A stretch of DNA of 39,112 nucleotides, taken from a virus. The position numbers were made by a program, and so were the translations under genes. Of this stretch, positions 2,159 to 6,967 are shown in pieces (the first letter of the stretch is position 1; each line of letters opens with the position of its first letter). The notes beneath the pieces were generated by a model. That model was not told the DNA's origin, searched no databases, and was given only the letters and a program-made list of their open reading frames with translations. The stretch spans positions 1 through 39,112 of IMG/VR virus record IMGVR_UViG_3300031825_000044. The stretch is one strand, 5' to 3'.

Positions 2159-2350
2159 ATGGACACCCCTATCCGTATGCAGGACCTGCGTCATGTGGAA
2201 ACCGGCCTTAGCACCGAGGAGAAAGCCGCTGCCCGGCGCGCGGGTCTAGCGCAAAAAGCTCGTGCAGCGCTTGGTGGCCGCTGGGTGATGGCACGTGAGA
2301 ACGCGCCGGTCCGCGGTGCCTACAACCCGCTTACTGGCGCGAGGCTGTAA
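2159..2350 (+). CDS. hypothetical protein (63 aa)
   Basis: Track ORF. Its stop TAA overlaps the next ATG (TAATG at 2348-2352). Confidence 0.6.
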   Translation: MDTPIRMQDLRHVETGLSTEEKAAARRAGLAQKARAALGGRWVMARENAPVRGAYNPLTGARL

Positions 2351-3213
2351 TGAACGCCCTAAACATTGAAGATTGGATCGGCCTTCGCTATGGCGAACCG
2401 ATTGATGTGTACCACGCTGACAAGAGCGCGATCAGCAAGACCGGCCTCGATCAGATAAACCAGTCGCCATTCATCTACTACTCGCGCTCGCTTGACCCGT
2501 CTCGACCGGATGAGCGCCAGAAGGTCGGTCAACTTGAAGGCAATCTCGCTCACTGCGCCGTGCTGGAGCCAGACGAGTTCAGCAAGCGCTATATCGTCGG
2601 CCCGGACGTCATCCGCAGCACGAAGATATGGAAGGACTTTGAAGCAGAGAATGTCGACAGGGTATGTATTAAGCCCGATCAATATGAAGCAGCCATGCGC
2701 CAGGCTGATTCGATTCGAGGCCTGCCAGATATCCGTGAATATCTCGGCAATGGACGCGCAGAAGTATCGGCGCGCTGGATAGACCCAGAAACGGGTGTGC
2801 GATGCCGCTGTCGCCCTGATTGGGTTAGCCCATGCGGATCAAAGACTGATCGTCTGCTGGATGTGAAGACCTACAGCGATGCTAGCCCCGAAGAATTCAA
2901 GCGCCAAATCGCGCGGAAGGCATACCACATTCAGGACGCGTTCTATAGCGATGGCTATGCGTTCGCGTCTGGGCGCGATGTGGTCGAGTTCATCTTCATC
3001 GCCGTCGAGACCGAGTGGCCATTCGCGGCAGCAGCCTATCGCCTCAATACCGACAGCCGCGAAGAAGGCTTCAATGAATATCGGCGCCTACTTGATATCT
3101 ATGAGGAGTGCCTGCGTTCCAATAAGTGGCCTGGGTACACAGAGCAGACAGTCGAGATCGAATTGCCGGCCTATGCATTTGCTACTAGGGAAGTGGAGAT
3201 TTCTTATGTCTGA
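2350..3213 (+). CDS. PD-(D/E)xK recombination exonuclease (exodeoxyribonuclease VIII / DUF3799-like)
   Basis: 287 aa. Pattern: ...SKTGLDQINQSP..Y......E.Q..G.LAHCAVLEP..F...RPDW...LLDVKT...F.RQIARKAYHIQDAFY...IFIAVETEWPF. This matches what I know of RecE-C-terminal/DUF3799 phage exonucleases. Confidence 0.75.
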   Translation: MNALNIEDWIGLRYGEPIDVYHADKSAISKTGLDQINQSPFIYYSRSLDPSRPDERQKVGQLEGNLAHCAVLEPDEFSKRYIVGPDVIRSTKIWKDFEAENVDRVCIKPDQYEAAMRQADSIRGLPDIREYLGNGRAEVSARWIDPETGVRCRCRPDWVSPCGSKTDRLLDVKTYSDASPEEFKRQIARKAYHIQDAFYSDGYAFASGRDVVEFIFIAVETEWPFAAAAYRLNTDSREEGFNEYRRLLDIYEECLRSNKWPGYTEQTVEIELPAYAFATREVEISYV

Positions 3214-3799
3214 CATAACCGATCTGCGTGGCACCATCGTGCCACGCAGCGATCAATTAAACGCTGAACAATTGCTCAGCGGTGACATGACTATCACCCT
3301 GACCGATGTGCGCATGGGCAGCGAGGACCAGCCTGTGATTCTGCATTACGAGAATGATCAGGGACGTCCATTCAAGCCATGCAAAACCATGCGAAAGCTT
3401 TTGATCTTTGCATGGGGGGAAGACGGCAGAAACTGGATCGGTAAGTCGATGACTCTATATAACGATGAGAAGGTGCGCTTCGGCGGAATGGAAGTTGGAG
3501 GCATTCGCATCCGCGCGCTGAGCCACATTGAGCGCGAGATCGCTATCTCATTGATCGCAACCAAGGGAAAGAAAGCTACACACAATGTACAGCCTCTAAG
3601 GGTCGTCACGCTGGCGGAGGTGCTGGAGGCTGTTGCATCGGCCACGAACAAGAACGGAATGGATGCGGCAAAGACGATGGCCATGCAGTTGCTCAATGAA
3701 GATGATGTGCAGGTAGCATCCGCAGCCTATGCGGCGCGCGTGAAGGAACTACGAACCCGTCCTGCCACTGCTATGCAAGACCAGCAGAGAACAGACTGA
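3206..3799 (+). CDS. hypothetical protein (197 aa), translationally coupled to the exonuclease
   Basis: ATG 3206 has GGAG 7 nt upstream and overlaps the exonuclease stop by 8 nt. MSDITDLRGTIVPRSDQLNAEQLL... I see no RecT/Erf/Rad52 motif. Confidence 0.7.
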   Translation: MSDITDLRGTIVPRSDQLNAEQLLSGDMTITLTDVRMGSEDQPVILHYENDQGRPFKPCKTMRKLLIFAWGEDGRNWIGKSMTLYNDEKVRFGGMEVGGIRIRALSHIEREIAISLIATKGKKATHNVQPLRVVTLAEVLEAVASATNKNGMDAAKTMAMQLLNEDDVQVASAAYAARVKELRTRPATAMQDQQRTD

Positions 3800-3861: not shown

Positions 3862-4932
3862 ATGGGCGCCTACTACAACGAGATCGAGCCATATGCAGCC
3901 CAGTGGCTGCGCAACCTGATTGCCGATGGCCATATCGCGCCAGGCGACGTAGACGAGAGAGATATTCGAGATGTTCGACCAGACGACCTTCGCGGATACA
4001 CCCAGTGCCACTTCTTCGCAGGAATCGGAGTCTGGTCACTCGCGCTCCGTCGTGCCGGCTGGGCCGATGATCGACCTGTTTGGACCGGTTCCTGTCCGTG
4101 CCAACCTTTCTCCGCGGCAGGCGCAGGACTTGGCTTTGCTGACGAGCGGCACCTCTGGCCGTTCTGGTACCACCTCATCAGCGAGTGCCGCCCTCCAGTC
4201 GTCCTTGGAGAACAGGTTGCGAGCAAGGACGCAGATCCTTGGGTCGACCTTGTACACGATGACATGGAAGCCGTGGATTACGCCTTCGGGACGCAGCCGT
4301 TCCCGGCTGCGGGCGTCGGTGCGCCGCACATCCGCGACAGAAACTACTGGCTTGGCGTCGCCCTGGGCGACGCCAAGCGCGAGGGACTGGCATTCGGCAA
4401 GCGGCTCTCCCGAGTTTCTGGAGGGCAGGCTGGCTCAACCGCGCGGGAAGCCATTGAGCGAGCAGGTGTTCACACTATGCGGCTGGCCGACACCGGCCGC
4501 AGGCGAATTCATACCGAAGGACCTGGACAGATTGCGAGAGCGTCGTCAGGAGTGCAAGGACAGAGTGGGCAACGGCAATGGCTTCGGCTTGACGTTGGGG
4601 CAGGCAGCGCCGTTGCTGGCGGGCTGGCCGACGCCAACCGCGACGGATGCGAGTCGCGGGGATCTACCGCCTCGCCCGCACGACACGGGAATTCCACTGG
4701 GGCAACGGGTCGCGATGATCGACACGTCGCAGCCGGCCCGATTAACGGCCTCTGGAGAGCTGCTGACTGGCTCCTGTGCCGGGATGGAAAGTGGCGGCCA
4801 GTTGAACCCGGCACACAGCCGCTGGCTCATGGGGCTTCCGCCCGAGTGGGACGACTGCGCGCCTACGGCAATGCCATTACCGCGGAAGCCGCGCGCGTCT
4901 TCATCGAAGAAGTAATGGAGTGCCTGCCATGA
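3862..4932 (+). CDS. DNA (cytosine-5) methyltransferase, phage type (356 aa, frame +1)
   Basis: Motifs: I FAGIG (4015-4029); IV PCQPFS (4096-4113); VI GEQV (4207-4218); VIII HIRDR (4327-4341); X GNAI (4867-4878). N-terminus is [16 protein letters not shown]. The central 135 aa are G/R/A/S low-complexity. Confidence 0.85.
3971..4915 (+). CDS. Nested alternative-frame ORF (314 aa, frame +2) with W(A/P)TP repeats and an LNPxxSRWLMGxPxEW motif
   Basis: ATG 3971 is preceded by GAGAGAGA. The frame is stop-free for 945 nt entirely inside the MTase ORF. Motifs: WATPSARD (4364), WPTPAAGE (4484), WPTPTATD (4625), [16 protein letters not shown] (4802-4849). Central composition is balanced and protein-like. 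Expression is unproven. Confidence 0.45.
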
Positions 4933-5126
4933 ACCTATTATCCCGTCTCGACTCGCACAACGAGTTCACCGAAAGCGCCGAAGCTAGGCAGCTAAGAAAA
5001 GATGCTGCTGATGAGATTCGGAGGCTCCGATACGCGCTCGACAACGCCAAAGGTCGCGCCGAAGCCGCTGAGATTAAAGCGAGCACATTGGAGCGCCTGG
5101 TGACGCGCGACAACGGAAGGAGATAA
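4929..5126 (+). CDS. hypothetical coiled-coil protein (65 aa)
   Basis: ATG 4929 overlaps the MTase TGA (ATGA). The track lists the GTG-extended version 4920..5126. Confidence 0.6.
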   Translation: MNLLSRLDSHNEFTESAEARQLRKDAADEIRRLRYALDNAKGRAEAAEIKASTLERLVTRDNGRR

Positions 5127-5696: not shown

Positions 5697-5915
5697 ATGA
5701 GCAACATGACACTATCGCCAGATGAATTGAAAGAACTGACGCATAGGTGCCGTCCCGGTGCGCAGGCGCGTGCGCTTCGGGCTATGGGTATCGAGCACAA
5801 GGTGAGACCAGACGGCAGCGTGGCCGTATTGCGGTCGCACGTTGAGGGGCAGATGGGTGCGCCGAATGACACTCGCCAGCCCGCTGCGTGGGAACCGAAC
5901 TGGAGTGCGGCCTGA
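5697..5915 (+). CDS. DUF4224-like small protein, probable excisionase/recombination directionality factor
   Basis: 72 aa. LSPDELKELTHRCRPGAQARALRAMGIEHKVRPDGSVAVLR matches the DUF4224 pattern commonly found directly upstream of phage integrases. Its TGA overlaps the integrase ATG. Confidence 0.6.
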   Translation: MSNMTLSPDELKELTHRCRPGAQARALRAMGIEHKVRPDGSVAVLRSHVEGQMGAPNDTRQPAAWEPNWSAA

Positions 5916-6967
5916 TGCCACGTCCGCGTAACAAGGAGAATCAGGGCCTGCCGACGCGCTGGCGGCGGCGCCGTGGCGCCTACTACTATCAGGTCCCGCC
6001 CGGCCTGGAAGCGATGTGGGATGGGAAAAAGGAATTCCGGCTCGGCGCGTCGCTGCCAGAAGCGTACAAGGTCTGGGCCGAACGCCTGGCCAGCGCCGAG
6101 GACACGCGCACGATCGCTCAACTGCTGGACCGGTACTCGCTCCAGGTCGTGCCCACGAAAGCCCCCAGCACGCGAGTGCAGAACCAGGTGGCGATCAAGC
6201 GCCTGCGCGCCGTGCTCGGCAACGCCCCCATCTCCGGGGTCCGGCCCCAGGTGATCTACCAGTACATAGAGCACCGGCAATCGAAGGTCGCAGCGCGCCG
6301 CGAGATTGAGATCCTGTCGCACGCTTTCACCAAGGCGGTCGAGTGGGGAATCATCGATAGGCACCCGTTCAAGGGCGAGGTGCGCCTGGCCAGCGAGAAG
6401 GCGCGCACGCGCTACGTGGAGGACTGGGAGATCGTCGAATGCCTGTCGCTGGAATCGAAACGCAAAGCGGGTAGCGTCCTCGCGGTGCAGGCCTACATCC
6501 GGGTCAAGCTGATCACTGGGCTACGCCGCGGGGATCTGCTGCGCCTGACTATGTCCGACCTGCAGGAGGACGGCATTCACGTCACGCCGGCGAAGACGGC
6601 CGGCAGCACCGCAAAGCGGATCATCCTGGCCTGGACGGACGAGCTGCGTGCCAGCGTCGAAATGGCCAAGCAGGCGAGGCCGGTGCGTATCTCACCCTGG
6701 CTCTTCTGCAATCGCGACGGGCAGTCCTATCTCAATGAGGAAACGGGCCGGGCCGGCGGGTGGGATTCGATGTGGCGCGGCTTTATGGAGCGCGTGCTGA
6801 AGGAGACGGAGGTCAAAATGCGCTTCAACGAGCACGACCTGCGCGCGAAATGCGCAAGCGATGCAGCTACGGTGGAGCATGCGCGGGCGCTGATGGCCCA
6901 CGCTGACAGCAGGATCACGGACCGGGTGTATCGGCGCAAACCTGAGTTGGTGCAGCCTCTGCGGTAG
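5915..6967 (+). CDS. int: tyrosine recombinase / phage integrase (350 aa)
   Basis: ATG 5915 overlaps the upstream TGA. MPRPRNKENQGLPTRW.... Catalytic pattern: TGLRRGDLLRL (Arg), HDLRAK (H-x-x-R), HADSRITDRVYRR (His...Tyr). The track ORF 5888 is a GTG extension. Confidence 0.9.
   Translation: MPRPRNKENQGLPTRWRRRRGAYYYQVPPGLEAMWDGKKEFRLGASLPEAYKVWAERLASAEDTRTIAQLLDRYSLQVVPTKAPSTRVQNQVAIKRLRAVLGNAPISGVRPQVIYQYIEHRQSKVAARREIEILSHAFTKAVEWGIIDRHPFKGEVRLASEKARTRYVEDWEIVECLSLESKRKAGSVLAVQAYIRVKLITGLRRGDLLRLTMSDLQEDGIHVTPAKTAGSTAKRIILAWTDELRASVEMAKQARPVRISPWLFCNRDGQSYLNEETGRAGGWDSMWRGFMERVLKETEVKMRFNEHDLRAKCASDAATVEHARALMAHADSRITDRVYRRKPELVQPLR

Follow-up and report, generated by a model that had tools for sequence, protein, structure and literature searches.

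The 39,112-nucleotide virus record IMGVR_UViG_3300031825_000044 of IMG/VR (analyzed over its whole length, 1–39,112, and referred to here as the window) carries at 3862–4932 a DNA (cytosine-5) (C5) methyltransferase locus inside which a second open reading frame (ORF) is nested. The closest described system is M.EcoHK31I of Escherichia coli (YGGCCR), a heterodimeric C5 methyltransferase whose β subunit is encoded inside the α gene in another frame. As its architecture is summarized in PMC2836561 and PMC3404938, both of which describe original work by Lee, Kam & Shaw 1995, α contains motifs I–VIII, motif X and the target-recognition domain (TRD), β contains motif IX, both subunits are required, and loss of the N-terminal 40–70 residues of β weakens its association with α. 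M.AquI is likewise a C5 methyltransferase of two polypeptides and is split within the variable region, with motifs I–VIII in α and the distal variable region and motifs IX–X in β (PMC3404938). Solved C5 methyltransferases have a small domain made up of the variable region and motif IX, and a large domain that holds most other conserved motifs (PMC3404938).

The window locus resembles M.EcoHK31I in several respects. Its α product, in frame +1, carries motif X as well as motifs I–VIII but lacks a functional motif IX; its β product lies wholly inside α in a different frame, with a start of its own, and carries a motif IX equivalent. The β N-terminus is needed for association in M.EcoHK31I, and a conserved, overprinted β N-terminal module is present here. 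The two systems differ in that M.EcoHK31I, as summarized in those papers, has its TRD in α and only motif IX in β, whereas the whole variable region of the window locus lies in β. The same summaries present M.EcoHK31I as part of a restriction-modification pair and as a single curiosity, whereas the window gene is a phage/prophage gene with no restriction partner nearby and its arrangement is family-wide. Because the constrained variable region sits in β, the window locus is a variant, not a copy, of the M.EcoHK31I architecture, compared here by described organization rather than by sequence. M.AquI shares the use of two natural polypeptides and differs in that the window keeps motif X on α; its motif distribution was seen only in two variant loci, L216 and that of Gordonia phage GordDuk1, with overlaps of ~95 codons. 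The single-chain enzyme gp71 of the actinophage IrishSherpFalk has the same module order (I–VIII, three LLPTPxxxD repeats, LNPAFPEWMMGWPTGW, GNGVVP), with all modules in one frame, no nested ORF with repeats and no β N-terminal module. The Rz/Rz1 spanins of phage λ are another phage gene pair in which one gene is nested out of frame in the other and the products act in one complex; they are unrelated proteins, with a much shorter overlap and an outer gene constrained along its full length.

We propose, at a probability of about 0.7, that the product of the locus is a DNA (cytosine-5) methyltransferase of two subunits, encoded in two overlapping frames of one DNA stretch. α and β would be translated independently from one mRNA. 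α would supply the large catalytic domain, made up of motifs I–VIII, a spacer of ~130 residues that needs only to stay open, and a C-terminal segment with motif X. β would supply the small domain, made up of an N-terminal module, four WxTP units (WITP at 4274 and three that follow WxTPxAx(D/E)) as variable/target-recognition region, and the motif IX equivalent. By analogy with M.EcoHK31I, the two chains would assemble non-covalently into the active enzyme, and the overprinted β N-terminal module is a candidate association element; on the same analogy we infer that both products are made, bind each other and are both required for methylation. The principle of a nested motif IX β subunit is known by experiment from one enzyme, M.EcoHK31I. 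New here are the placement of the whole variable region in the nested gene, the conversion of the α variable region into an unconstrained open spacer, and the family-wide occurrence of the arrangement. Our literature search found no paper on the nested ORF of this methyltransferase family, and an earlier note on this DNA, made from the sequence alone, did not name M.EcoHK31I as an experimental precedent.

Two open frames in the window and in related loci

The features of the locus are as follows (amino acids, aa).

3862–4932, + strand: α ORF, frame +1; ATG 3862, TGA 4930–4932, 356 aa; predicted C5 DNA methyltransferase catalytic subunit
3971–4915, + strand: β ORF, frame +2; ATG 3971, TAA 4913–4915, 314 aa; wholly within α
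3862–4356, + strand: α N-terminal large-domain part with motifs I, IV, VI and VIII, read from the sequence
3955–3962, + strand: putative β ribosome-binding site GAGAGAGA, overlying α codons D-E-R-D-I-R-D-V, which run on to ATG 3971–3973
4015–4029, + strand: α motif I, FAGIG
4067, + strand: possible alternative β start ATG (MIDLFGP)
4096–4113, + strand: α motif IV, PCQPFS
4100–4341, + strand: dual-coding stretch, β N-terminal module (ANLSPRQA...LLTSGTSG...) over α motifs IV–VIII
4207–4218, + strand: α motif VI, GEQV (variant of ENV)
4274–4285, + strand: β WITP unit, read from the sequence
4324–4341, + strand: α motif VIII, PHIRDR (variant of QxRxR)
4357–4746, + strand: α spacer, G/R/A/S-rich in +1; in +2 the β variable (WxTP-repeat) region
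4364–4387, + strand: β WATPSARD unit, read from the sequence
4484–4507, + strand: β WPTPAAGE unit, read from the sequence
4625–4648, + strand: β WPTPTATD unit, read from the sequence
4747–4929, + strand: α C-terminal part, with motif X GNAI (4867–4878) and a final helix
4802–4849, + strand: β motif IX-like string, overlapping an α string in +1; +2-type substitution pattern

The coordinates and motifs given for the two open frames in the earlier note (+1, 3862–4932; +2, 3971–4915) all hold, as do the three WxTP units it listed; the fourth, WITP at 4274, had been missed. Motifs I, IV, VI, VIII and X are all on one chain, +1. The variable region and motif IX do not lie between VIII and X of that chain; both are in +2. 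Searched separately, as had been suggested, the two translations fall into different ‘DNA methyltransferase’ families of PHROGs: α into phrog_363 over its full length (E 2.5e-82) and β into phrog_1008 over aa 4–306 (E 8.8e-40). Pfam recognizes α as PF00145 (E 2.9e-10, above the gathering score) over aa 75–166 only. AlphaFold2 (AF2) gives residues 1–165 of α a predicted local distance difference test score (pLDDT) of 80–95, and in a +1/+2/+1 mosaic chain it places a helix at mosaic residues 343–356, which are the last 14 of α (pLDDT ~70). At 4807–4836, the same bases give a motif IX-like string in both frames, the +2 version being better conserved; the Pro and Gly shared by the two strings come from CCCG and GGGG runs.

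With either translation as query, tblastn matched hundreds of phages, including those of E. coli, Salmonella and Klebsiella. The first sample comprises 191 homologous loci, and column and shuffle statistics for clade 1 used 155 sequences; clade 2 was gathered with the protein of Paenibacillus phage Bert, and 54 of its loci (39–61% guanine–cytosine (GC) content, 35–96% identity to Bert) were analyzed. The question raised in the earlier note, whether both frames stay open in homologues, has a clear answer: 188/191 loci keep the +2-type frame open across 230 codons or more (median 319), against a median of 47 for the third frame, which served as an internal control. α is intact in ~187/191 loci and is interrupted in about four (L091, L160, GordDuk1 and L031), in L091 by a nonsense codon at Trp58. 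L031 holds an intact, diverged dual-frame copy beside a decayed one: an N-terminal methyltransferase remnant (592–1287) lies directly upstream of the intact α (1284–2213) and β (1351–2142), an arrangement resembling the scar of a tandem duplication or of a replacement.

In clade 2, motif X is in +1 only and motif IX, with 1–4 WxTP units, in +2 only in ~45/54 loci, and the +2 frame is open for 200–300 codons vs 10–50 for the third frame. Both frames are open at 52–65% GC in Salmonella phage SI7, N15 gp58 (52%) and the Burkholderia phages BcepC6B and vB_E264, and at 48% GC in Bert. The window and Bert share 31% identity over 275 aa in +1 (E 3e-23) and 30% over 265 aa in +2 (E 4e-14); at such a divergence, identity of ~30% in both frames is far more than one frame could impose on the other. 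The number of WxTP units per locus ranges from 1 to 4 and the length of the α spacer from ~35 to 220 aa. In short α forms of 245–256 aa, a nested +2 ORF is still present, bearing one GWPTPTTRDWKDG unit together with the motif IX-like string; these forms had been considered as a control lacking the nested gene and were rejected as such, the nested β being present.

The arrangement spans two host phyla and 39–69% GC. The same layout is found in the finished genomes of phages N15, BcepC6B, K1G and SI7 and in the complete genome of E. coli H10407; a scan of 5426 complete E. coli genomes found N15-like matches in 63. In enterotoxigenic strain H10407, the prophage gene ETEC_RS15020 (NC_017633.1, 2990000–2991013; 58% GC) is annotated as a ‘DNA cytosine methyltransferase’ of 337 aa, and an unannotated nested +2 ORF of ~290 codons within it contains three TP units with a W (GWPTPAASD, GWYTPTCNT and GWPTVTTVD) and a motif IX-like string. 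For β itself, at least 7968 homologues are called, and no Pfam domain occurs in any of them; its profile matches 18,527 clusters at 50% identity, whose phages infect Proteobacteria and the Firmicute Paenibacillus, among others.

Selection on each frame and the start of the nested gene

The retention of open frames was assessed by permuting synonymous codons within the selected frame and counting stops in the other frames. The procedure is conservative because the shuffled codons are those that selection has already chosen. Stops per locus were as follows.

N-domain, clade 1 (155 sequences): +2 stops 0.07 observed vs 1.31 expected; third frame 4.67 vs 4.45
Motif VIII to the +2 stop, clade 1: +1 stops 0 observed vs 3.85 expected; third frame 8.0 vs 7.5
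N-domain, clade 2 (33 distinct loci): +2 stops 0 observed vs 1.51 expected; third frame 5.6 vs 5.2
Motif VIII to the +2 stop, clade 2: +1 stops 0 observed vs 4.96 expected; third frame 9.9 vs 9.9

Downstream of nt 3976, none of the 155 sequences has a +2 stop. Both frames are thus kept free of stops by selection in two divergent clades. In the window alone, the +1 frame over ~4343–4912 has 0 stops vs 4.0 expected, with 0/100 shuffles stop-free, and the third frame has 6 vs 7.6 expected; the earlier judgment that a double open frame of this length is unlikely to arise by chance is borne out. For the upstream part of +2, stop depletion in the window alone is not significant (0.53 stops expected).

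Substitution rates were measured as p-distances at +1 codon positions 1/2/3 in 62 phylogenetically independent pairs with 69–93% nucleotide identity, and they change pattern along the locus.

3862–4086: about.09/.07/.35; ordinary +1 coding
4087–4311:.13/.08/.18; +1 pattern with the synonymous rate halved (.15–.20 vs.35)
4102–4116, 4132–4146 and 4237–4251: patches with a +1 synonymous rate of.05–.09
4312–4341: +1 pattern; +1 only
4357–4716:.47/.32/.28; +1 position 1 (= +2 position 3) fastest,.45–.52; +2 coding
4732–4746: +2 pattern; +2
4762–4791: +1 pattern with a lowered synonymous rate; mainly +1
4792–4806: about.03 at all three positions; both frames
4807–4851:.12–.24/.03–.09/.04–.11; +2 pattern
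4867–4911: +1 pattern; +1

Each frame is under purifying selection in defined segments. The α spacer (4357–4746) is without amino-acid constraint in +1, yet is held free of stops. Over about 80 codons, purifying selection acts on both frames at once. Within the dual-coding stretch, the +2 Trp at 4265–4267 is invariant (155/155) under a +1 residue that is Leu, Met or Val, and the β residues in 4100–4341 are more conserved than the α residues above them. The Pro of PCQPFS is encoded by CCT in 90% of these 62%-GC genes, and CCT yields the Leu of the +2 ANLS. As read from such codons, +1 codon choices serve +2.

Several expectations of the earlier note can be set against these rates. The frame under selection does change near 4342–4363 and 4850–4866, the two switch points it had named, and the composition flip it described matches a real switch of the frame under purifying selection. 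As to the suppression of +1 synonymous variation that it proposed to test across 3971–4915, the rate is halved at 4087–4311 and lowered at 4762–4791, and 3862–4086 is ordinary. Its description of the +2 peptide upstream of 4340 as non-protein-like was mistaken, since that peptide is under selection from ~4100.

In the aligned sequences, the nested ORF shows a conserved ATG of its own together with a Shine-Dalgarno (SD)-like site. An ATG at the 3971 position is found in 82% of the 155 homologues, formed by Asp-Val as GAT GTN; Asp at this site is GAT in 85%, vs 36% elsewhere in the N-domain. Eight nt upstream of the ATG, many genes spell AAGGAG or AGGAG through Glu GAA, Arg AGG and Ser AGT/AGC, and Arg at the SD-like site is AGG in 41%, vs 7% elsewhere. 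Of the 127 sequences with the ATG, 84 have AAGGAG, AGGAG or GGAG upstream, vs 2 of the 28 that lack the ATG (Fisher p 5e-9). Many clade 2 loci show a +2 stop, AAGGAG, 7–10 nt and an ATG, with few codons before the conserved LTLFP...ANLS. The Met equivalent to 4067 is the start in most best matches to the β profile, among the matches listed, and ATG 4067 lies just ahead of the onset of +2 constraint.

These data bear on the view that one frame is truly coding and the other is a by-product of high GC content or nucleotide constraints, or of two compensating sequencing errors. Genes as GC-rich as this one (64%) often carry long spurious ORFs, and in the window alone the stop depletion in the upstream third of +2 falls short of significance. 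The layout nevertheless holds at 39–52% GC, no test shows the third frame departing from expectation, ~30% amino-acid identity is kept in both frames between the window and Bert, and frame-specific substitutions, rare codons and an SD-like site with ATG cannot come from GC content. Assembly error, raised in the earlier note as compensating indels, is ruled out because more than 250 independent loci share the arrangement, and the finished genomes among them exclude an artefact of one common assembly pipeline. We regard this explanation as hardly credible.

A different proposal is a single mosaic enzyme made through two programmed frameshifts, from +1 to +2 at ~4342–4363 and back to +1 at ~4850–4866, which would restore the linear order I–VIII, variable region, IX, X of single-chain enzymes. 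The frame under selection changes at exactly both junctions, and gp71 shows that linear order in one frame. Selection, however, holds +1 open through the spacer and +2 open for ~120 codons upstream of the first junction, neither of which a mosaic needs; 4100–4340 is constrained in both frames, and β owns a start signal, the conserved ATG with its SD-like sequence. Only 4/149 sequences have an X_XXY_YYZ heptamer at junction 2, and only 9/155 have homopolymers of at least 5 at junction 1. The hallmarks of a programmed ribosomal frameshift are not seen here: the slippery site is unconserved, the zero frame stays open and +2 has its own start. The mosaic would also place only ~7 residues between the motif IX Trp and the motif X GN, vs 18 in gp71; this spacing is ~19–20 in M.HhaI and M.HaeIII. 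The recoding mosaic, listed as a possibility in the earlier note, is disfavored by both frames being kept open past the junctions and by the lack of a conserved slippery site, and we consider it very improbable.

A search with the mosaic as query gave a further line of evidence against it: in none of the best 120 matches are the +2 motif IX and the +1 motif X joined in one frame. Among the matches, 37 ‘fused’ ORFs have junctions ranging from before motif VIII (eight lie upstream of VIII) to ~80 aa after it, and all 37 are without motif X. Given their scattered junctions and missing motif X, the fused ORFs were rejected as a functional single-chain form and are read as frameshift alleles or pseudogenes. 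Such proteins, entered in databases as ‘DNA cytosine methyltransferase’ with the N-domain fused in frame to a +2-type C-terminus, are P0121, P0123, P0126, P0127, P0141 and P0156 with ~30 others, as well as L269, L270 and L212; in P0141 (P. putida Q9Z406), the fused protein is without motif VIII as well.

Identity of the nested product

In hhalign, a profile of 113 +2-type proteins aligns at a probability of 81% (E 1.2e-5) with residues 194–360 of gp71 from Mycobacterium phage IrishSherpFalk, which lie in frame between motifs VIII and X of that protein. The three LLPTPxxxD repeats of gp71 pair with β WPTP units, and LNPAFPEWMMGWPTGW, in frame between the repeats and motif X, pairs with the β motif IX-like string. 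The gp71 N-domain matches M.HhaI residues 16–170 (E 6e-15). By inspection, the β string appears to correspond to canonical motif IX (R.LT.RE.ARLQGFP), and its alignment with LNPAFPEWMMGWPTGW agrees with the earlier suggestion of a motif IX counterpart in +2. Taken with the known domain division, the gp71 alignment leads to two assignments: α is therefore the counterpart of the large domain, with the spacer where the small domain would be inserted, and β that of the small domain plus an extra N-terminal module (aa 44–124). The nested gene with a possible target-recognition role, one of the options in the earlier note, is favored by selection, by the start of its own and by this alignment.

The N-terminal module overlies α motifs IV–VIII and is without counterpart in gp71. 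In the AF2 model of β, only aa 70–120 and 185–199 are confident, with a helix at 70–89 and a β-hairpin at 95–117; 10-residue blocks over aa 71–120 average pLDDT 78–87, the highest in β. The +2 peptide over the N-domain of a mycobacteriophage gene was considered as a homologue of the β N-terminus and dropped, as the positions are non-equivalent. The shared MSxTSG and TWK strings do not reflect homology because they are conserved +1 motifs (DERHLWP, DLE) read out of frame.

It could also be that both ORFs are translated and β has a separate job, for instance as a DNA-binding regulator or anti-restriction factor, with α alone being the enzyme and its variable region minimal or disordered. α does carry its own motif IX-like string upstream of motif X, α forms as short as 245–256 aa exist, and β is without a recognized domain. 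The α string is unconserved in the Bert clade, where motif IX is +2 only, and the substitution pattern at 4807–4851 is of +2 type; the α variable region is without amino-acid constraint, the short α forms still hold a nested β, and β shares homology with the variable region and motif IX that the single-chain gp71 carries in frame. On this evidence we judge a separate function for β unlikely.

The two variant loci support a two-chain enzyme. In L216, of the Bert clade, and in GordDuk1, +1 stops just after motif VIII, and +2 carries the repeats, IX and X. Two chains are therefore needed there in any case, and motif X can therefore sit on either chain, the α spacer only tethering it. The ORFs concerned are nt 398–907 and 594–1577 in L216, of the ~95-codon overlap type, and 1288–1827 and 1529–2158 in GordDuk1 (L005), which is annotated with a 179-aa ‘DNA methylase’ and a short hypothetical protein.

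Several points weigh against a two-subunit enzyme. A spacer of 35–220 unconstrained residues within α is unusual, and L160 has a +1 nonsense codon in this spacer. β gave no match in Pfam, NCBIfam, a PDB profile search or Foldseek. The AF2 model of β alone has a pLDDT of 60 and a predicted template modeling score (pTM) of 0.28, which is uninformative on association, and that of the +1/+2/+1 mosaic is confident in the N-domain only, with the +2 part at 33–53, which is uninformative on docking. The SD-like sequence of the window itself (GAGAGAGA) is weak, 18% of the homologues are without the 3971-type ATG, and the β start, 3971 or possibly 4067, is uncertain. The loci are phylogenetically related, so that their counts are not independent events.

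Neighboring genes, annotation and significance

The methyltransferase gene belongs to a temperate phage's early or recombination region. Upstream of it lie an exonuclease VIII-like gene (2350–3213) and a phrog_11517 gene (3209–3799), and downstream an integrase gene (5888–6967). Next to the window methyltransferase there is no restriction gene, as expected for an orphan phage enzyme. In the ORF list, the exonuclease VIII-like ORF (2350–3213) and the next one (2879–3799) overlap by 335 nt. The second of the two most probably begins at ATG 3209 (MSDITDLRG..., phrog_11517), so that the long overlap is a first-ATG artefact. One further ORF directly follows the enzyme and is given as context only:

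4929–5126, + strand: small downstream ORF, outside the enzyme

It found no match in the PHROG search. Its ATG (4929–4931) and the α TGA (4930–4932) overlap as ATGA, which suggests translational coupling to the +1 frame.

Annotation of this family is inconsistent, with gene callers choosing either frame almost arbitrarily and +2-type products named ‘hypothetical protein’ or ‘putative metabolic enzyme’, or else entered without explanation as a second ‘DNA methyltransferase’. In vB_E264 (L004, 1496–2680), only the +2-type frame is deposited, as ‘putative metabolic enzyme’; in K1G (L192, 795–1619 and 883–1575) and PhiXhv-18 (L193, 855–1847 and 937–1842), both nested coding sequences are deposited as ‘DNA methyltransferase’. 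Frameshifted alleles pass as normal full-length methyltransferases because any indel merely joins two open frames.

On balance, we favor the view that M.EcoHK31I is one example of a very large, ancient phage/prophage C5 methyltransferase family in which the target-recognition region and motif IX lie in a nested gene of 200–330 codons and the α variable region is an open spacer. The E. coli copies (N15 gp58 and H10407 ETEC_RS15020) make the hypothesis directly testable. The family offers hundreds of aligned long same-strand overlaps with single-frame, dual-frame and ‘open but unconstrained’ segments, together with natural variants in which motif X has moved between subunits and a single-frame outgroup. 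What it implies is a C5 methyltransferase of modular build, in which a repeat protein that resembles no solved target-recognition domain serves as the recognition subunit; this is relevant to split methyltransferase engineering. If the two-subunit reading is true, these loci could rank among the longest widely conserved same-strand gene overlaps in bacterial viruses, and specificity, set by the number and sequence of WxTP units, would evolve in one frame while the other frame tolerates the changes.

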